Shown here: positions 44,198 through 54,083 of the stretch, in pieces | Numbering within the stretch: position 1 is the first letter of the stretch | Layout: every line of letters begins with the position of its first letter | Source: an uncultured Odoribacter sp. | GTDB taxonomy: Bacteria; Bacteroidota; Bacteroidia; Bacteroidales; Marinifilaceae | Length of the DNA: 64,000 nucleotides | Reading direction: 5' to 3' | Assembly: GCA_902461525.1 (NCBI GenBank) | Contig: CABPYD010000001.1 | Coordinates: 246,835 to 310,834 of the forward strand | Translations under genes and position numbers: made by a program | Notes under the pieces: model-generated | Told to the model about the DNA's origin: nothing | What the model saw: only the letters and a program-made list of their open reading frames with translations | Databases searched by the model: none

Positions 44198-44319
44198 TTC
44201 TTTGCTTATGGGGGAATCCTCCCGGAAAATAATTGAGTATGTTTGTAAAGACTGAGAAAATGAAAGTGATGGAAATGGGTTACCGGAATATGTTGTAATT
44301 TAAAATGAATTGTTGTGTA

Positions 44320-46545
44320 ATGAGTAAAAAATTATTATTGGTAATTGCAGTTGGTTTATTGTCAGGAGTTGTACGGGCACAGGGGTGGTTGCCTGCGGAG
44401 ATGTGTCCTGCTGAACCTGTTCGGCTGTTGGGGTGTTGTTATGAAGGTTCCCGCTTGAAGGAATGTACAGTCTTGACTCCCCAATCTAAAGATTGGCGTG
44501 TGGAAACCGTTTGTGATGGTACAGAAGGAAGAATGCAGTATATTTTTGAAGCCAGAAGGGATATGCATCAAGTAGGGGTAGCGGTTGCTTTTGATGAATA
44601 TGACTGGTGTAGCGACAACTACGTGATGATCCCGGCGGTAGTATACAACGGTAACCGGCAGCGTATTGTCAACCGGGCTTATGCTACGGGACTCGACCGG
44701 TCGGATTATTACCGGCGGGACTTGGCACTGACTTCTAATCCAATTCCTCAGCTTTCCCCTGAATACGGTGCACGTTCGCGCCTGGAAGTGAATATCAGTA
44801 ATACAACTACTCCCGTAATTACTTACCTTAACCGGAAAAGACAGCAGGGTATTTTTTTATTCACTGATCAGGGTATAACCGTGGGGCGGGAAGTGAGGGA
44901 TCACGCGTTAATCGTCGAAGAGTCACCAGACCGTAAAATGGCGAGTTTTGTCATCAGTGCGCCGGGAGTCAGGGAATATAAACCTGAATTTATTGGTTTC
45001 AGTGCTAGTCCCGACCGGGGAATCTCTGTGAAAGCCGGGGATAAAATCGTTATCCGCGTGACAAAAGTTGTATTTACTGCCGATGGAGTACCTTCTTTGC
45101 TCGCCCGTTTTATGACCGAACGCAAACTCCATACAGTTAGTGCCCTGCCACGTAATTTGATGCCAATGAGTGAAATGACCGGACGGATGATCCGCAACAT
45201 TGATGAACGCTATCATCAGGGGGATAAATGGGCTTATTATTGCCCCGAGAATGCCGATTGGATGTCCTATGGCTGGGTCGGGGGATTGATTAATACCTAT
45301 CCGATGCTTGCGTTGGGAGATGCAGAACATTTGCAAAGAGTGAAAAATACCTTTGATTTTGCCTTGATGCGCGGATTCGGGAAAAGCGGTTATTATTACG
45401 ATATATTGGGTGCAGACGGAAATGTACTTTATCGGGATGGGGCAAAATTGAACCCTGGTATCGGATTGACCCGTAAAAATGCCGATGTGCTTTATTGGAT
45501 GGTGAAGCAATTCATGTTGTTGCGGAAGCAGGGTAAGGCTGCGGAGATTCGTCCGGAATGGGAAGAACGGGTCCGTCTGCTTGCGGATGCTTTTGTCAAA
45601 ACATGGAACACTGAAGGAACCTGGGGAAATTATCTCGATATTGAAACCGGACGCATAGCGGCTTATAATACCACTGGCGGCGCTATGGCTGTGGGAGGAT
45701 TGGCCCTGGCGTCGCTTTACTACCACTGTCCTGAATATATGGTTACAGCCCGTGAGGCAGGTATTTTTTATTACAATCATTTTGCATTGGTAGGTTTCAC
45801 TTCCGGAGGGTGTGGGGATATTTTACAAAATGCTGATTCGGAAACAGCAGTGGCTTTATTGACTTCTCTGCTGACACTTTATGAAACTACCGGAGATGAG
45901 ATGTATTTGAAACAGGCAGCCGATCTGGCCCATCTCTGTGCCACCTGGGTTGTATCGTTTCCCTATCGTTTGCCGGAAAATACGCCTCTTGCCCGGCTTG
46001 GAGCCAACCTTACAGGTGCTGTCTGGGCCAGTACACAGAATAAGCATGGCGCACCGGGATTTTGTACCCAATCAGGAGATGCTCTTTTTAAGCTTTACCG
46101 GGTAACGGGAGATACGTTGTATGCAGCCTTATTGCGTGATGTAATCCATGCTCATGCCGAGGGTGTACAACCTAACGGGAAAATTACGGAACGCCTGACC
46201 TATTGCGATGCCGATAGCCGTGGAAGTCGCGGTGACGGAGGAAAAACGGGCTGGAATGAAACGAATGGCGCACTTATGGGACTCGAAATCCCCGGGATTT
46301 ATGTGAGAAAGGATCGGGGAACCTTTTATGTTTTCGATCATTTGGTGGTTAGTTTGCATAAACAAGATAAAAAACAAATGGTATTGAAGATTAAAAATCC
46401 GACGGCTTGGGATGCAGAGGTTACAATTTTGACCGAAAATGAGGAGCGTGCTGCCCGTCCTTTAGGAGATAATGCTTTCCTTGACTGGAAGGTTAAAAAG
46501 CGGGTGAAAGCCGGAAAGACTATTTATTATGTTGTAGATAAATAG
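44320..46545 (+). CDS. Uncharacterised secreted protein (about 740 aa), possibly an (alpha/alpha)6-barrel glycosidase-like fold
   Basis: The ORF opens at 44305. The likely start at 44320 gives MSKKLLLVIAVGLLSGVVRAQ. The C-terminal half is helix-rich ('GGAMAVGGLALASLYYHCPEY', 'AVALLTSLLTLYETTGDEMYLKQAADLAHLCATWV'). No family motif was recognised. Confidence 0.4.
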   Translation: MSKKLLLVIAVGLLSGVVRAQGWLPAEMCPAEPVRLLGCCYEGSRLKECTVLTPQSKDWRVETVCDGTEGRMQYIFEARRDMHQVGVAVAFDEYDWCSDNYVMIPAVVYNGNRQRIVNRAYATGLDRSDYYRRDLALTSNPIPQLSPEYGARSRLEVNISNTTTPVITYLNRKRQQGIFLFTDQGITVGREVRDHALIVEESPDRKMASFVISAPGVREYKPEFIGFSASPDRGISVKAGDKIVIRVTKVVFTADGVPSLLARFMTERKLHTVSALPRNLMPMSEMTGRMIRNIDERYHQGDKWAYYCPENADWMSYGWVGGLINTYPMLALGDAEHLQRVKNTFDFALMRGFGKSGYYYDILGADGNVLYRDGAKLNPGIGLTRKNADVLYWMVKQFMLLRKQGKAAEIRPEWEERVRLLADAFVKTWNTEGTWGNYLDIETGRIAAYNTTGGAMAVGGLALASLYYHCPEYMVTAREAGIFYYNHFALVGFTSGGCGDILQNADSETAVALLTSLLTLYETTGDEMYLKQAADLAHLCATWVVSFPYRLPENTPLARLGANLTGAVWASTQNKHGAPGFCTQSGDALFKLYRVTGDTLYAALLRDVIHAHAEGVQPNGKITERLTYCDADSRGSRGDGGKTGWNETNGALMGLEIPGIYVRKDRGTFYVFDHLVVSLHKQDKKQMVLKIKNPTAWDAEVTILTENEERAARPLGDNAFLDWKVKKRVKAGKTIYYVVDK

Positions 46546-46652: not shown

Positions 46653-48857
46653 TCAGAATACCTGATAAGGTTCTCCTGTAATGTTCAGGGTGATGAATTT
46701 TCCATCAGTGTAACGGGGTTGACCGCCACCGATATGAATTTCTATATTTCCGGCTTCCTCTGTCAGGTTTCCATCCGTTTGAGTCAAGGCTAAGTCTTCT
46801 GGCGTGAGCCGGAAGGTTACTTGCTGTTCTTCTCCGGCTTTTAGATGGATGCGCCGGAAACCTTTCAGAGCACATAGCGGAATTTGACGTACGCCATCTT
46901 GGGAATGAACAACGTAAAGCTGCACAACTTCATCGCCATCTCGTTTGCCGGTATTTTTTACGATAGTGCTTACCTCAACGGTTTCTCCTGTAGTTATTTT
47001 GGGGGGGCATTGAGGCTGACTGTAAGCAAAAGTAGTATAACTCAGGCCATATCCGAACGGATAGAGTGGTTCGCCTTTGAAATAACGGTAAGTGCGGTTG
47101 GCCATAGAGTAGTCTTCAAAAGGAGGCAGGTCTGCATCGCTCTGATAGGTTGTCAGCGGCATACGTCCGGCCGGGTTATATTCACCGAAAAGTACGTCAA
47201 CAATAGCATCTCCTCCTGCCTGTCCGCCATACCATGCCTGCAATATGGCATCGGCCTGCTCGCTTTCCCATTCGAAGCTCATCACAGAACCTGACATGTT
47301 TACAACGATTAGAGGCTTCCCTGTTTTTTTCAGTTCTTTCAGTAATTCAGTTTGTACTGCGGGAAGTTGTATGGTGGTGCGGTCACCGCCGTAAAATCCG
47401 GCCTGTCCTCCGTTTCCAGCGTCACCTTCTTCTCCTTCGAGCTCGGCATTGATACCTCCGACGTAAATAATGACATCTGATTTTTTAGCTTCTTTTGCAA
47501 TTTCCGGGAATGAAAGGCTGTCTTTCAGTTTGTCCACAAAACCTACTCCTTGCCGGTAATTAATCTGTATCCGGTTGCCGAAACGTTTTTGTAAACTCTT
47601 GTAAGGTGTAATAATTTCGGTCGGTCTGCCAAAATAATTTGCCAGCAAGGTTTGTTCATTATTGGCATTCGGGCCAATCAGGGCAATGCGTTTGATTTTG
47701 GAAGCTTTTAAGGGTAATATTTGTTTTTTGTTTTTTAACAATACCATGGATTCTTGTGCCATCCGGTAAGCGTGTTGTTTATGGGTTTCACATTCAATAA
47801 CTTCTCTGCCGATAGAAGCATAGGGAACACGGTCGGCGGGATCGAACATTCCGATCTTGAATAAGATGGTAAAAAGGCGGGTGAGTGAAACATTGATATT
47901 ACGTTCCGACAGATAACCTTTCTTCACTCCCTGTTCGAGTAAGTGGTACAGATTCCCGCATTCGAGGTCAGTACCTGCCAACATAGCGTCGCTTACTGCT
48001 GCAGTATTGTCGGTATGTGTTTTATGATGGCTTTTGAAATCGCTGACAGCCCAGCAATCTGAGGTGACGTATCCTGTAAATCCCCATTGGTTGCGTAGGA
48101 TGTCAGTCAGTAAACGGTTGCTTCCGCAGCAAGGCTGCCCGTCCAGGCGATTATAGGCACACATCACACCATGTACTTTGGCTTGGGTGACTAAAGTCCG
48201 GAAAGCTGGCAAATAAGTGTCCCACAAATCAAAAGCTGAGGGACGAGCGTCATAGGTATGGCGACTTGTTTCCGGTCCGCTGTGTACGGCGTAATGTTTG
48301 GCACAAGCCACAGATTTCAGATAGTGTGGGTCGTTACCTTCTAATCCCCGGACAATGGCTGAACCCATTTGTGCAGTCAGGTAGGGATCTTCACCATATG
48401 TTTCATGTCCCCGGCCCCAACGGGGATCCCGGAAAATGTTGATGTTGGGGGTCCAGTAGGTCAGACCCCGGTAAATGGTCCCTGTTTTTCCGGCTTTCAA
48501 GTCCTCGTTGAAAATAGCCCTTCCTTCGCTGGCGGTGATATCTCCCATTTTTTGAATGGCTTCTGTATCGAAAGTAGCTGCCATTCCGATGGCCTGTGGA
48601 AATACCGTTACTTTTTCTTGGGTACGGGCAACACCATGTAAGGCTTCGTTCCACCAGTTGTAGGCCGGAATTCCCAAACGAGGGACAGCTGCCGCCTGAT
48701 GTTTCATCATTTGTACTTTTTCGTGCAAAGTCAATCGCGAAATGAGGTCTTTCACTCTTTCTTCTACAGGGAGATCCGGATTCCGGAAGGGATAGGTTTG
48801 CGCCTGTACCATCATGCTCAGACAACATCCTAAAAGAAATAGATTAAATTTTTTCAT
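46653..48857 (-). CDS. GH3 family glycoside hydrolase (beta-xylosidase/beta-glucosidase type), periplasmic; last gene of the xylose operon
   Basis: This is the C-terminal 734 codons of the 1265-codon ORF, beginning at the in-frame 'MKKFNLFLLGCCLSMMVQAQ' signal peptide. 'YNWWNEALHGV', 'GFTGYVTSDCWAV', 'KHYAVHSGPE' and the C-terminal FnIII-like 'YGLSYTTFAYS' are GH3 motifs of the Xyl3A/BglX type. Confidence 0.75.
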   Translation of the reverse strand: MKKFNLFLLGCCLSMMVQAQTYPFRNPDLPVEERVKDLISRLTLHEKVQMMKHQAAAVPRLGIPAYNWWNEALHGVARTQEKVTVFPQAIGMAATFDTEAIQKMGDITASEGRAIFNEDLKAGKTGTIYRGLTYWTPNINIFRDPRWGRGHETYGEDPYLTAQMGSAIVRGLEGNDPHYLKSVACAKHYAVHSGPETSRHTYDARPSAFDLWDTYLPAFRTLVTQAKVHGVMCAYNRLDGQPCCGSNRLLTDILRNQWGFTGYVTSDCWAVSDFKSHHKTHTDNTAAVSDAMLAGTDLECGNLYHLLEQGVKKGYLSERNINVSLTRLFTILFKIGMFDPADRVPYASIGREVIECETHKQHAYRMAQESMVLLKNKKQILPLKASKIKRIALIGPNANNEQTLLANYFGRPTEIITPYKSLQKRFGNRIQINYRQGVGFVDKLKDSLSFPEIAKEAKKSDVIIYVGGINAELEGEEGDAGNGGQAGFYGGDRTTIQLPAVQTELLKELKKTGKPLIVVNMSGSVMSFEWESEQADAILQAWYGGQAGGDAIVDVLFGEYNPAGRMPLTTYQSDADLPPFEDYSMANRTYRYFKGEPLYPFGYGLSYTTFAYSQPQCPPKITTGETVEVSTIVKNTGKRDGDEVVQLYVVHSQDGVRQIPLCALKGFRRIHLKAGEEQQVTFRLTPEDLALTQTDGNLTEEAGNIEIHIGGGQPRYTDGKFITLNITGEPYQVF

Positions 48858-50450
48858 TTTTTTCCATATTTTTTCAATGTTTTCTAAACTGCGTCCTTTG
48901 GTTTCCGGTACCATTTTCCATACAAAAATGGCGGCCAGTATACCCATTATACCATAAATCCAATAAGCAAATCCGTGGTGAAACAGGTGAGTCAAAGTAG
49001 CATTCTCATTCATGATCGGGAATGTCCAGGAGACAACCAGATTGGCCAGCCATTGTACAGCTACGGCTATAGACATGGCTCCTCTCACACTGTTGGGAAA
49101 AATTTCAGCCAACAGTACCCAGGCGACTGGTCCCCACGACATGGCAAATGATGCCGTGTATATAAGCATAAAAATAAGAGATCCGATTCCCACGCTATTC
49201 AGATAGAAAGTCAGTCCCAGGGCGAACATACTGATGGCCATACCTATGGCACCGACGATCATCAGAGGTTTGCGGCCAAAACGATCGACGGTCAGGATGG
49301 CGACTACAGTGAAAGATAGGTTAATGATTCCGACAATGATGGTTTGTAATAAGGATGCATCTGTACCGGCTCCCATCGTACGGAAAATTTCAGGAGCATA
49401 GTATAATACCACATTGATCCCGACGGCCTGTTGGAAAAAGGAAATCAGCATTCCGATTCCAATCACTAAAGCTCCGAATGAGAGCCAATGGGCATTTTTC
49501 CCGTTCAGGCTATCACGGATCTGGAAGATTTCTTCGCGGGCGACCTGTTCTCCATATAAACGGGTCAACACACGGGTTGCTCCTGTTTCATTGCCTTTCA
49601 GCATCAGAAAACGAGGGGTCTTGGGTACCCAGAATAACAACACGAAAAACAGGATACAGGGTAACAATTCTGATGCAAACATCCAGCGCCAGCCGATTGT
49701 ATCCAGCCAGTTGGTATCTCCTTGACCTGCAATGTAATAATTGACGAAATAAACCACCAACATACCGAATATAATGGCAAATTGGTTGAGTGATACCAAT
49801 TGTCCACGCATTTTTGCGGGGGCAATTTCGGCAATATACATAGGTGAAAGCATGGAAGCTATTCCAACTCCGATGCCACCAATGATACGGTAGAAAATCA
49901 GGGAGCTGATCATTTCCACTCCCAGAAAATTGAGTTTGTCCGGAATGGCTGAGCCTAAAGCTGATATTGTAAAAAGCAGGGCTGCTACGATTAAACCCTG
50001 TTTACGGCCAATACTTCCGCTGATACTTCCTCCCAATGCTCCACCGATAATACAGCCCACTAAAGCACTTGAAATCGTGAAACCTTTGATGGAGCTCGCC
50101 ATCGTTTCCGTAAGTACGTTAGGTTGATCCCAGAATTGAAAATACCATACGATCAGGCTCAGAATGATCAGGAAGATGGTATAGACAGCCCCTTTACAGG
50201 TATTATATAGTTTTGTCAAAAAAGAACTAGCCAGTATAACCAATACTACCACACAAAGACTAATGATAATTTTATATTCAAAGATTACTTCCCGGGCCAT
50301 ACCGGTATCTTGAAATAGAGGCTTTATGAAAAAATTATCGAGTGCTCCGGTTGTTCCCGAAATCACGGCGGTGTCATACCCGAAAAGCAAACCGCCTAAG
50401 GCTGCCACCAGCGTGATCCCAAAAATCAAAAATTTGTTTTGTTGATTCAT
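48858..50450 (-). CDS. MFS sugar porter (D-xylose:H+ symporter XylE-like)
   Basis: An ATG at 50450 opens 'LFGYDTAVISG'. 'GRKQGL', 'PETKGRSLENIEKIW' and a 12-TM composition are classic sugar-porter motifs. The reading frame continues without a stop into the GH3 gene through an A7 tract (see findings). Confidence 0.75.
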
Positions 50451-50475: not shown

Positions 50476-51792
50476 TTAAGCATACATATTCACAATAGCC
50501 TCATACAACTCTTGCTTACCGCTGGTTTGCCGGGGTTCACCCTGGCTGAGGGCATAATTGCGCAAGTCTTCCAGAGATAAAAGACCTGCTTCAAATTCTT
50601 TACCTTTGCCTTTGTCGAAAGAAGCATAACGATCTTTTAGCATCTGGCAGATTGGAGATTCTTCCAGGAGGCGGATGGCATTTTCCAGGGCACGGGCAAA
50701 AGCATCCATGCCGGCTATGTGGGCAATAAAAATGTCCTCCAGATCAGTGGAGTTCCGGCGGGTCCTGGCATCAAAATTTGTTCCTCCGGTTCCCAAACCT
50801 CCGTTCCGGACAATTTGTATCATTGCTTGTATCAATTCGTAGTTATCAATGGGGAATTGGTCGGTATCCCAGCCATTTTGATAATCTCCCCGGTTGGCGT
50901 CTATTGATCCCAGCATTCCTGCATCAACCGCACAGGCCAGTTCATGTTCAAAAGTATGTCCTGCAAGGGTAGCGTGATTGACTTCTATATTCACCTTAAA
51001 ATCTTTATCCAGACCGTGTGTCCTCAGGAAACCGATTACGGTTTCTGTATCCACGTCATACTGGTGTTTCATGGGTTCCATCGGTTTGGGTTCAATCAGG
51101 AAAGTTCCTTTAAACCCTTTAGCCCGGGCATAATCACGGGCTTTGGTCAACATCATGGCCAGATGTTCTTTTTCACGCTTCTGATCGGTATTCAGCAAGG
51201 ACATATAACCTTCCCGTCCTCCCCAGAATACGTAGTTTTCTCCTTCCAGGGCAATGGTAGCATCAATGGCATTTTTGATTTGTACGGCAGCCCGGGCAAC
51301 TACGTTGAAATCGGGATTCGTGGCTGCACCGTTCATGTAACGGGCATGCCCGAATACGTTGGCCGTTCCCCACAATAGTTTTATGCCGGTCTGTGCCTGT
51401 TTCTGTCTGGCATAGGCAACTATCTCTTTCAGATTGGCTTCGTATTCCCCGATGGTAGCTGCCTCTGCCACCAGGTCTACATCATGGAAACAATAGTATT
51501 CGATACCACATTTCTGCATAAATTCGAATCCGGCATCCATTTTATCTTTTGCTGCCTGTATGGGATCAGTTGCGCTATTCCAGGGAAAGGTTTTTGTACC
51601 GCCTCCAAACTGGTCAGTCCCTTCTGCACAAAGCGTATGCCACCAGGCCATCGAGAAACGTAACCAGTCTTTCATCTTTTTGCCGCCTACTATTTTTTCT
51701 GCTTCATAATAACGGAATGCAAGCGGATTTTTACTTTCTTTACCTTCAAATTGAATCTTACCGATTCCTGGAAAATATTCTTTTGTTGTCAT
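50476..51792 (-). CDS. xylA: Xylose isomerase
   Basis: The 438-aa protein begins '[31 protein letters not shown]' and carries 'FHDVDL' and 'WGGREGY', hallmarks of XylA. Confidence 0.9.
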
Positions 51793-51843: not shown

Positions 51844-53340
51844 TTAATCGTTACCTTGGACGCAGGTCCTTATCAGTCTTTTCCATCGTCCGTAAGCTTC
51901 CAGGTAAATTTCCTTTCCGCGGCTTTCCGGTTCCACGACAGCTTGTTTTTTCAGGGTAGCAAATGCTTCCCGGGGAGAACGGTAAATCCCGGCTCCGATT
52001 CCGGCTCCCCGTGCTGCGCCTGCGGCTCCGTCAGTGTCATATAGTTCAATCGTTGCACCGCTAACGTTTGCTAAGGCTTGCCGGAAAACGGGACTCAGAA
52101 ACATATTGGCTTGTCCGGCACGAATCACCCGGATAGCCATGCCCATCGATTTCATGATCTCCATCCCGTATTCAAAGGAAAAAACAATTCCTTCCTGAGC
52201 TGCACGAACCAGATCCGAACGGTGATGTGTGTTGAAATTGATACCATGAACGGAACAATTGGTTTGTTTGTTTTTTAGAATCCGTTCGGCTCCGTTGCCG
52301 AAAGGAATGATGGAAATCCCCCGAGCTCCCGGTACGGATTGGGCTGCCAGACGATTCATATCTTTGTAACTCATATTTTCAGAAACTATGTTTTTCCGCA
52401 TCCAGGAATTTAAAATTCCTGTTCCATTAATACATAACAATACGCCTAAGCGGATTTGCTCAGGAGTGTAATTGACATGGGCAAAGGTATTGACCCGGGA
52501 TTCCGGATCGTAGTTTACTTGTCCTAATACTCCATAAACGACACCGGAAGTTCCTGCTGTGGATGCTATTTCCCCGGGATGCAGTACATTGAGCGATAAA
52601 GCATTATTAGGCTGGTCACCTGCCCGGTAACAAACCGGAGTTCCGGTTTTCAGACCTAATTCTGCGGCTATACTTGCCGATACTTCTCCCTGATAACCGA
52701 AAACCGGACAGTGCCCTGGCAACTGTTGCCAGTCGAAGCCAAAATAGTTCATGATATCTTGCGACACTTCATTTTTTACGAAATCCCAAAAAATACCTTC
52801 CGATAATCCTTCTGTGGTGGTTGCTATTGTTCCTGTCAGTTTCATTGCGATATAATCGCCCGGTAGCATGAATTTGTCCGTTTGTTCATAAAGCTCTGGT
52901 TCGTTTTCCTTTACCCAGGCTAGTTTGGCTGCTGTAAAATTGCCCGGAGAATTTAATAAGTGCTGAAGGCATTTTTCTTTACCGATTGTCCGGAAAGCTT
53001 TTTCTCCGTAAGCTACGGCCCGGCTGTCACACCAGATGATGGAGGGACGCAAAACTTGCTGTTTCCGGTTGACCAATACCAATCCGTGCATTTGCCAGGA
53101 TATACCGATGGCTTTGATCGCTTCACCTTTTATACCCGATTTTCTCATCACTGACTGATGGGCCAGTTTCAGGTTCTCCCACCATACTTCAGGTTGTTGT
53201 TCTGCCCAACCGGGATAGGGAGCCTGAATTGCCATTTCTGTTTTCGGATAAAAGTCCGATGCGACAATATGTCCCGTCTCAACCTCTACTAAACAGGCTT
53301 TTACTGAGGAACTGCCTATATCATAACCCAATAGATACAT
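51844..53340 (-). CDS. xylB: Xylulokinase (FGGY carbohydrate kinase)
   Basis: 'MYLLGYDIGSSSVKACLV', 'GTSGVVYGV' and 'GGAGARGAGIGAGI' are present, and it sits in xylose-operon context. Confidence 0.8.
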   Translation of the reverse strand: MYLLGYDIGSSSVKACLVEVETGHIVASDFYPKTEMAIQAPYPGWAEQQPEVWWENLKLAHQSVMRKSGIKGEAIKAIGISWQMHGLVLVNRKQQVLRPSIIWCDSRAVAYGEKAFRTIGKEKCLQHLLNSPGNFTAAKLAWVKENEPELYEQTDKFMLPGDYIAMKLTGTIATTTEGLSEGIFWDFVKNEVSQDIMNYFGFDWQQLPGHCPVFGYQGEVSASIAAELGLKTGTPVCYRAGDQPNNALSLNVLHPGEIASTAGTSGVVYGVLGQVNYDPESRVNTFAHVNYTPEQIRLGVLLCINGTGILNSWMRKNIVSENMSYKDMNRLAAQSVPGARGISIIPFGNGAERILKNKQTNCSVHGINFNTHHRSDLVRAAQEGIVFSFEYGMEIMKSMGMAIRVIRAGQANMFLSPVFRQALANVSGATIELYDTDGAAGAARGAGIGAGIYRSPREAFATLKKQAVVEPESRGKEIYLEAYGRWKRLIRTCVQGND

Positions 53341-53351
53341 GATTGACTAAA

Positions 53352-54083
53352 TTATAAGGTTACTTTTCGTTTGTTGTATGATATCCGGTCGAATTTGTAT
53401 AGACGGGCGGCCCGGTGAGCCACTCCCTGTTCTTTTTCATCCAGAGGGACTACATACTCCATTCCTGCCATCTTTTTGTGGAAATTCCGTACATCACAAG
53501 TCTTATGATAAATAGTTTCATATAAATGACGTAAATCTGCTGCTGTAAACTTGGACGGAAGCAATTCGAACAAAATGGATGGTTCATATTCTCCCCAGGA
53601 CTGGACTTCTTCTAAAGCTTCCCTGACAATCTGATTGTGATCGAAAGGCATAGTGGGTAAAGCATTGACCGGAATCCAGTTGACCGATTTGTATTTAGAT
53701 ACGATGTTTAACTTCCGGTTAATTTTGCACAGTGATAAATAAGCAATTGTAATCAGCCGTTCGATATGATGATGATATTCCACTTCCAGCCAAAGCCGGT
53801 CAGCCGGACTGGAGGTACGTTGCAGGGAGGTGAAACTTTTAAATTGCCGTAAAGCCATTTTACGTATTCCGGTTAGTTCATATAATACCCGTGCGGCGGC
53901 AGTGTCCGAATCTTCTTCCTGGTAGATCAGGCTTCCCGGTAGTTTCAATTTTTCTTCTCCTGCCGGAAAGTTTTTACGTTCCACCAATAATATGTTCAAT
54001 TGTTTTCCATCAAAACCCAAAATAACGCAATCGATTGAGACATAGGCTTGCATATATCCGTTGAACTTCGTTTCGTCTTCCAT
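53352..54083 (-). CDS. Nudix-related transcriptional regulator (NrtR-like; degenerate Nudix box + C-terminal winged helix), first gene of the xylose operon
   Basis: The Nudix-like stretch 'LPGSLIYQEEDSDTAAARVLYELTGI' has a degenerate REx2EE box. This gene order mirrors the known Bacteroides arrangement Nudix-family regulator / xylulokinase / xylose isomerase / xylose permease. Confidence 0.6.
   Translation of the reverse strand: MEDETKFNGYMQAYVSIDCVILGFDGKQLNILLVERKNFPAGEEKLKLPGSLIYQEEDSDTAAARVLYELTGIRKMALRQFKSFTSLQRTSSPADRLWLEVEYHHHIERLITIAYLSLCKINRKLNIVSKYKSVNWIPVNALPTMPFDHNQIVREALEEVQSWGEYEPSILFELLPSKFTAADLRHLYETIYHKTCDVRNFHKKMAGMEYVVPLDEKEQGVAHRAARLYKFDRISYNKRKVTL

Follow-up and report, generated by a model that had tools for sequence, protein, structure and literature searches.

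The A7 allele of a xylE-GH3 gene pair in an uncultured Odoribacter sp.: a clonal deletion with a predicted polyprotein-like product

Among the closest described parallels to the locus reported here is FbcH of Bradyrhizobium, a cytochrome b/c1 precursor from which cutting at the internal c1 signal peptide yields two proteins. Another is the Rieske protein of Streptomyces, in which an internal signal peptide joins a polytopic part to a domain that is exported (PMC13186574). The same order, with a polytopic part that ends in the cytoplasm and an internal signal peptide that leads into an exported globular domain, is predicted for a protein encoded in a 64,000-nucleotide stretch of an uncultured Odoribacter sp. 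(GenBank assembly GCA_902461525.1, contig CABPYD010000001.1, positions 246,835 to 310,834; hereafter the window), where a XylE-type symporter of the major facilitator superfamily (MFS) and a glycoside hydrolase family 3 (GH3) enzyme share one reading frame through a run of seven adenines (A7). In contrast to the FbcH and Rieske proteins, which are conserved, evolved architectures (the latter Tat-dependent), the window protein is a predicted Sec substrate that stems from a one-base accident in one clone, and its cleavage is a prediction. Literature searches returned no description of a protein in which an internal signal peptide links a Sec-inserted transporter to a periplasmic glycosidase, and fused transporters are not mentioned in a review of glycoside transporters. 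The reading favoured here, with the reservations set out below, is that a clonal deletion from A8 to A7 created a polyprotein-like XylE-GH3 precursor that would resolve itself into its parts, the allele probably being near-neutral. Both genes are ordinary and well understood and the mutation is of a known kind; the fusion is not a new protein architecture.

Both halves have relatives of solved structure. E. coli XylE, of which the N- and C-terminus are both cytoplasmic, resembles the transporter half over the full length of the Sugar_tr profile and matches it strongly as a solved structure, and the window gene lies beside xylA and xylB. The window XylE differs in carrying an insertion between transmembrane helices (TM) 1 and 2 shared with a Bacteroidota subfamily and, in the A7 allele, in running on into GH3 with no stop. 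The GH3 half shares its three-domain build with the periplasmic GH3 beta-xylosidases and beta-glucosidases of Bacteroidota and with the structures 7zb3, 8c7f and 7vc7, and the signal peptidase I (SPI) signal peptide with Gln at +1 is a further feature in common with its orthologues. In contrast, every orthologue found is free-standing; in the source species GH3 lies directly behind xylE, the two genes overlapping where the run is A8 and being fused where it is A7.

The A7 and A8 alleles

The open reading frame (ORF) listing of the window holds a single minus-strand frame of 1265 codons (1265 aa) that leads from the symporter (531 aa, residues 1-531) into the GH3 enzyme (734 aa, residues 532-1265). 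Pfam places Sugar_tr at residues 13-529 of the fused ORF, Glyco_hydro_3 at 578-861, Glyco_hydro_3_C at 902-1138 and Fn3-like at 1174-1242. On the minus strand the junction is gaaaaaatatgg-aaaaaaa-tg-aaaaaattt, read as the codons gaa aac att gaa aaa ata tgg aaa aaa ATG aaa aaa ttt. The TGG codon of W529 occupies 48866..48864, the A7 run 48863..48857 and the GH3 ATG 48857..48855; the first base of the start codon is thus the final A of the run, which appears as T7 on the plus strand. The original prediction had described transporter and hydrolase as joined in one 1265-codon frame through A7, and the ORF listing, the junction DNA and the Pfam matches all confirm it. Its calculation that a run of six (A6) would read WKK-TGA with an ATGA overlap was also arithmetically correct.

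The two-gene state that occurs in nature is nevertheless a different one from that A6/ATGA arrangement. One NCBI metagenome-assembled genome (MAG) contributes to the same 90% protein cluster both a 535-aa 'D-xylose transporter XylE [Odoribacter sp.]' and a 734-aa GH3, and the 535-aa XylE is listed in 214 blocks of the protein collection, about ten times more often than the fusion. Loci L092-L101 carry eight adenines and read tgg aaa aaa aat gaa aaa att taa, so that XylE has 535 aa and ends ...WKKNEKI followed by the stop. The GH3 ATG lies 14 nt ahead of the xylE stop, giving a 14-nt overlap of the two genes. Because the majority loci carry A8 with two overlapping genes, this is the normal state, and the window allele is a one-base deletion. 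Neither XylE-531 ending WKK-stop, the A6 product, nor XylE-532 ending WKKK-stop, the product of a run of nine (A9), was found by exact look-up in about 15 billion proteins. A pattern scan allowing tract lengths of 4-12 found the junction on one JGI metagenome contig (L101, coverage 1.55), which carries A8; this contig also has a 10-bp deletion in GH3 (aligned to window positions 48553..48562), probably a low-coverage artefact or a pseudogene.

The A7 tract is not peculiar to the window. An identical 1265-aa protein is encoded on 23 contigs that derive from different runs and assemblers (Logan, ENA with MEGAHIT- and SPAdes-style names, and NCBI), and all ten fetched loci that encode the exact fused protein (L001-L010) carry A7, which rules out an error private to the window. 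Alignment of the 11 A7 sequences (window and L001-L010) with ten A8 loci, over up to 18 kb, revealed four differences that separate every A7 from every A8 sequence, namely T54251, T52324, T52243 and A47000. The first is intergenic, upstream of the regulator gene, the second and third are synonymous in xylB, and the fourth corresponds to Q1151K in GH3. T54251 (A in the others) falls in an AT-rich region upstream of the xyl cluster, 168 nt ahead of the regulator start at 54083. Diversity is 0.024 differences per kb within A7, 1.09 per kb within A8 and 0.98 per kb between the two.

Fetching loci by exact protein identity biases the sample, and reciprocal exact look-ups were therefore run against the same 15 billion proteins. 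The fused protein with Q1151, as expected of A7 on the majority background, was absent, and so was a stand-alone GH3 with K1151, as expected of A8 on the window background. Since only two tract lengths occur, each on its own background, the sequences indicate that A7 is a recent, stably inherited deletion of single origin in a clone now present in many samples. Of the first option put forward in the original prediction, a homopolymer error or slippage-prone site, the one-base homopolymer difference from a two-gene state therefore stands; the error does not survive the 23 contigs and the four linked single-nucleotide polymorphisms (SNPs), nor does ongoing slippage fit the restriction to A7 and A8.

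The two halves and their distribution

The Sugar_tr (PF00083) match scores 395 bits against a cut-off of 22.3 and spans profile positions 2-452. The E. coli XylE structures 4gby/4ja3 match at E=1e-169 (residues 110-532 against 45-481), and the gene order regulator-xylB-xylA-xylE is found in the window and in all related loci. Profile, structure match and the xylA/xylB neighbourhood together identify the N-terminal half as a XylE-type D-xylose:H+ symporter, with transport as a predicted function. Between TM1 and TM2 of the window XylE, a hydropathy scan displays an insertion of about 65 residues that includes two strongly hydrophobic segments. This insertion (residues 45-112, about 50115..50318 on the minus strand) is common to homologues of about 530 aa across Bacteroidota and to one Fibrobacteres MAG, and is missing from the 471-aa XylE homologues of L086 and L087 and from E. 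coli XylE. Proteins that bear it may constitute a 14-helix XylE subfamily. The C-terminal PETKG-x-LE-x-IE-x-W motif is conserved, and the natural end of the orthologues lies within a few residues after it. In other Bacteroidota most orthologues terminate ...WKK-stop and are followed by non-coding sequence or convergent ORFs, xylE being the last gene of its cluster. The corresponding tail of the fused protein is rich in lysine and arginine (K/R), with eight such residues between positions 512 and 534.

The GH3 half matches the N-terminal (PF00933, 155 bits), C-terminal (PF01915, 190 bits) and Fn3-like (PF14310, 57 bits) domains, and its closest solved structures are the beta-xylosidases 7zb3, 8c7f and 7vc7, with E about 1e-109 to 1e-103. 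The translation contains GYVTSDCWAV, a candidate for the conserved GH3 nucleophile-Asp motif (V/T)-S-D-(W/C). By its best solved matches the enzyme is beta-xylosidase-like, and substrate specificity is not a property that can be read from sequence alone. Its N-terminus is MKKFNLFLLGCCLSMMVQA↓QTYPFRNPDLP (the arrow marks the putative SPI site V-Q-A↓Q), with a 14-residue hydrophobic core below the threshold of the 19-residue hydropathy scan, V and A at -3 and -1 and Gln at +1. About 70 orthologues (58-76% identical; from Parabacteroides, Bacteroides, Alistipes, Muribaculaceae and others) all carry an N-terminal signal peptide directly preceding the conserved (Y/F)PF(R/Q)NP motif, and most of these peptides end ...A↓Q. 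Gln at +1 conforms to the Q-rule for SPI substrates of Bacteroidetes (PMC5837995). The orthologue signal peptides, mostly A↓Q and fitting this rule, thus point to a GH3 that is normally periplasmic. The logic of the operon is straightforward, with a predicted periplasmic xylosidase followed by the xylose importer, isomerase and kinase.

Within the group of A8 loci fetched by XylE sequence (L092-L096), every SNP in GH3 is synonymous, which indicates that GH3 is under constraint in the source species. A second homopolymer within GH3 also varies. The majority allele at 46997..47007 is C8A3 (Q1151), against C7A4 (K1151) in the window lineage. In four Logan contigs (L097-L100), on at least three SNP backgrounds, the run is C7A3 and the resulting frameshift divides GH3 into parts of 620 and 118 aa, and P0038 resembles a C9 variant of the same run. 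The C7A3 and C9 variants may reflect either genuine mutations that recur or errors in assembling the homopolymer.

The distribution of the two genes was followed in a scan of one genome per GTDB species, which returned 80 loci, none from the source species, although five of the six peptide patterns used are common to the A7 and A8 alleles; its genome is probably masked in that collection or missing from it. In these loci the GH3 orthologues are open frames of about 740-750 aa whose upstream 4 kb contain no MFS gene, and no GH3 lies downstream of the XylE orthologues. A 319-aa query with the junction at its centre was compared with 1.84 billion representative proteins, and its best 150 matches each hit one side only, never both. 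The xylE-GH3 adjacency thus appears specific to the source species. Because XylE orthologues end ...WKK-stop as the last gene, GH3 orthologues stand alone and no best match spans the junction, the fusion is read as a derived state confined to one clonal haplotype and not as an evolved multidomain family of the Rosetta-stone type. A genuine transporter-hydrolase fusion, the second option of the original prediction, therefore holds at the DNA level in one clonal lineage, although the architecture is conserved nowhere else.

Two ORFs of similar build were retrieved with the whole 1265-aa protein. P0005 (L103 3001-6357) consists of an MFS sugar porter ending ...LWELEITKKIMQ, the signal peptide MKKINTLLFFLSISLIFSTAVYC↓QQ and GH127, while P0008 (L104 2183-6187) consists of an MFS sugar porter, a signal peptide of lipoprotein type (LVVGC) and a GH78 rhamnosidase. 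As in the window, a sugar porter with the conserved PETK...W tail is followed directly by a signal peptide (MKKINTLLFF…AVYC↓QQ in P0005) and then by a glycoside hydrolase. In contrast, the hydrolase families and organisms are others, and each of the two ORFs is found on one or two contigs, compared with 23 for the window allele. The P0005 junction lies on an A8 run (ACAAAAAAAATAATG), and removal of one A would give ITKK-TAA with a TAATG overlap. Such fusions thus arise sporadically where a transporter gene abuts a secreted-hydrolase gene on an A-run. The other matches of the whole-protein search were mostly unusual long proteins and were set aside, among them assembly duplications (P0001) and a spurious frameshifted tail (P0006); the cluster to which the query itself belongs was not among the matches.

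Expected fate of the A7 product

In the proposed working of the A7 allele, loss of one A from A8 carries the xylE frame into the GH3 start codon, and ribosomes translating xylE would continue into GH3. The sequence presents the elements of a polyprotein-type layout in order, namely a polytopic part, a predicted cytoplasmic end, a signal peptide with a -3/-1 site and a domain of exported type. As the C-terminal tail of XylE is cytoplasmic by homology and K/R-rich, the GH3 signal peptide FNLFLLGCCLSMMV would be expected to insert N-in/C-out, and the Sec translocon, already engaged by the ribosome, would export the 715-residue GH3 domain to the periplasm as in the wild type. In the specificity of SPI, a short core with such -3/-1 residues marks a cleaved peptide and not a stable anchor. 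Cleavage is therefore expected over stable anchoring, given the short core, V/A at -3/-1 and Gln at +1, and SPI would likely cut at V-Q-A↓Q to give a normal mature GH3 and a XylE with an extra 19-residue C-terminal helix. Release of GH3 is thus more likely than its permanent tethering.

A second route to free enzyme probably exists. The A7 allele has A at positions -1 to -6, -12 and -13 of the GH3 AUG. In Flavobacterium johnsoniae, which initiates without Shine-Dalgarno use, adenines at -3, -6, -12 and -13 stimulate initiation (PMC6847099). A-runs ahead of start codons are consequently to be expected in this phylum, and because the A7 allele keeps A at these four positions, an optimal A-rich context for Bacteroidetes, internal initiation at AUG532 probably also yields free pre-GH3. 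The fused frame itself needs no frameshift in the A7 allele. In E. coli reporters slippage of RNA polymerase is detectable at runs of at least seven T and at longer runs for A (PMC6260861); transcriptional slippage may matter little here. The net effect on the use of xylose and xylo-oligosaccharides would then probably be small and the allele near-neutral.

Several points weigh against this reading. Export, cleavage and internal initiation are all derived from sequence. Because exact protein identity was the criterion for retrieving A7 loci, A7 alleles with other amino acid changes would have escaped the search; the reciprocal exact look-ups argue against a widespread A7. Some of the contigs may represent one run assembled twice or one host resampled, as with the two SAYO22-1 samples. 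Finally, the A7 lineage appears very young, with almost no diversity, and the allele may have mild deleterious effects.

Among the alternatives, a tolerated loss of function is doubtful. The 734-residue extension might harm XylE, or the loss of termination-reinitiation coupling might lower GH3, in a niche where the pathway is dispensable. The GH3 C8-run frameshifts that split the enzyme in public assemblies hint that loss of GH3 can be tolerated, and a young lineage has given selection little time. However, the A7 allele retains both domains intact, together with the signal peptide and the context of the start codon, GH3 polymorphism elsewhere in the species is synonymous, and the C7/C9 variants are confined to Logan assemblies and may be errors.

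An adaptive tethered fusion is unlikely. It would require that an uncleaved 140 kDa protein keeps the xylosidase at the periplasmic face of the importer, channels xylose and drives the spread of the clone. The topology would allow it, with a K/R-rich cytoplasmic tail that precedes a hydrophobic segment of N-in/C-out orientation, the xylB-xylA operon couples enzyme and transporter in function, and the A7 lineage occurs in many samples; fusion would also force a 1:1 stoichiometry. Yet the fusion is unconserved in other lineages and species, the lineage is very young, the unaltered signal peptide has a typical SPI site and a short hydrophobic core, comparable MFS-signal peptide-GH ORFs elsewhere are singletons, and a clone can spread among hosts without help from the A7 allele. 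It is similarly improbable that a circulating gut Odoribacter clone makes importer and xylosidase as one chain with a substantial uncleaved fraction tethered at the transporter mouth. The signal sequence had been proposed to act as a 13th TM helix holding the enzyme beside its importer. It would be the 15th hydrophobic segment if both insertion segments span the membrane, and the 14-residue core and V-Q-A↓Q site make a permanent tether less likely than release.

A phase-variable contingency locus, in which slipped-strand mispairing toggles between separate genes and fusion, is very unlikely. The variable run sits exactly at the gene junction, both of its lengths are natural and the second GH3 homopolymer (C8) also has length variants. 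Against this, runs of seven to eight A are short for a contingency locus, the two lengths are confined to their haplotypes with no A6, A9 or cross-combinations in the exact look-ups, and the A7 loci are clonal. That the true genome has two genes and A7 was miscalled in one assembly is scarcely credible, for although homopolymers are notoriously prone to error and a single A separates A7 from the two-gene allele, A7 recurs in Logan, ENA and NCBI assemblies, pipelines of the same style yield A7 or A8 according to the sample (ERZ272… k141 contigs; SAYO22-1 versus LEEK22-1), the tract is perfectly linked to four SNPs over about 7 kb, unlike random errors, and it is absent from the majority protein background.

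Features of the locus and significance

The features of the locus are collected in Table 1. An Rfam search of the window gave no match, and a scan for sigma-70 promoters and terminators near the junction performed no better than on shuffled sequences, with models that do not cover Bacteroidota promoters. Convergent to GH3, and beside GH35 and GH2 genes, lies a gene for a 746-aa protein with an N-terminal signal peptide (44305..46545, plus strand). No Pfam match is recorded for it and a sequence search of the PDB gave no match among solved structures; it is a candidate uncharacterised carbohydrate-active enzyme.

Table 1. Coordinates of the xylE-GH3 fusion and of associated features in the window
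Feature	Coordinates	Strand	Basis
Fused XylE-GH3 ORF, A7 allele	46653..50450	minus	ORF listing, Pfam, exact product on 23 public contigs
XylE-type D-xylose:H+ symporter portion, residues 1-531, ending ...ENIEKIWKK	48858..50450	minus	XylE structure match, orthologue ends
A7 homopolymer (A8 in majority allele)	48857..48863	minus	A7 in window and L001-L010, A8 in L092-L101
GH3 start codon and predicted Sec/SPI signal peptide MKKFNLFLLGCCLSMMVQA, residues 532-550	48801..48857	minus	Sequence, orthologues, Q-rule
Mature GH3 (residues 551-1265) and stop, beta-xylosidase-like	46653..48800	minus	Solved structures, Pfam
C7A4 run in GH3 (K1151; majority C8A3, Q1151), marker linked to A7 lineage	46997..47007	minus	
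xylA (xylose isomerase), directly upstream, same operon	50476..51792	minus	ORF; Pfam AP_endonuc_2/XylA2_C recorded for identical gene
xylB (FGGY xylulokinase), two synonymous A7-lineage SNPs (52324, 52243)	51844..53340	minus	
NUDIX/AraR-NrtR-like winged-helix regulator gene, first gene of cluster	53352..54083	minus	

The main value of the locus is cautionary: a striking transporter-hydrolase ORF is a real allele, yet one that represents a young one-base deletion in a gene-overlap homopolymer. Where genes meet tightly on A-runs, themselves favourable start contexts in Bacteroidota, read-through fusions can arise, and population data can tell error, phase variation and clonal mutation apart. If the tethered reading were true, the clone would represent a very recent natural trial of joining transporter and enzyme, for which the same species offers the isogenic two-gene allele as a comparison. 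A retained signal peptide could render such an accident harmless, and, should there be an A7 isolate, the two alleles A7 and A8 would offer a clean natural system for the processing of internal signal peptides and for translational coupling in Bacteroidota.

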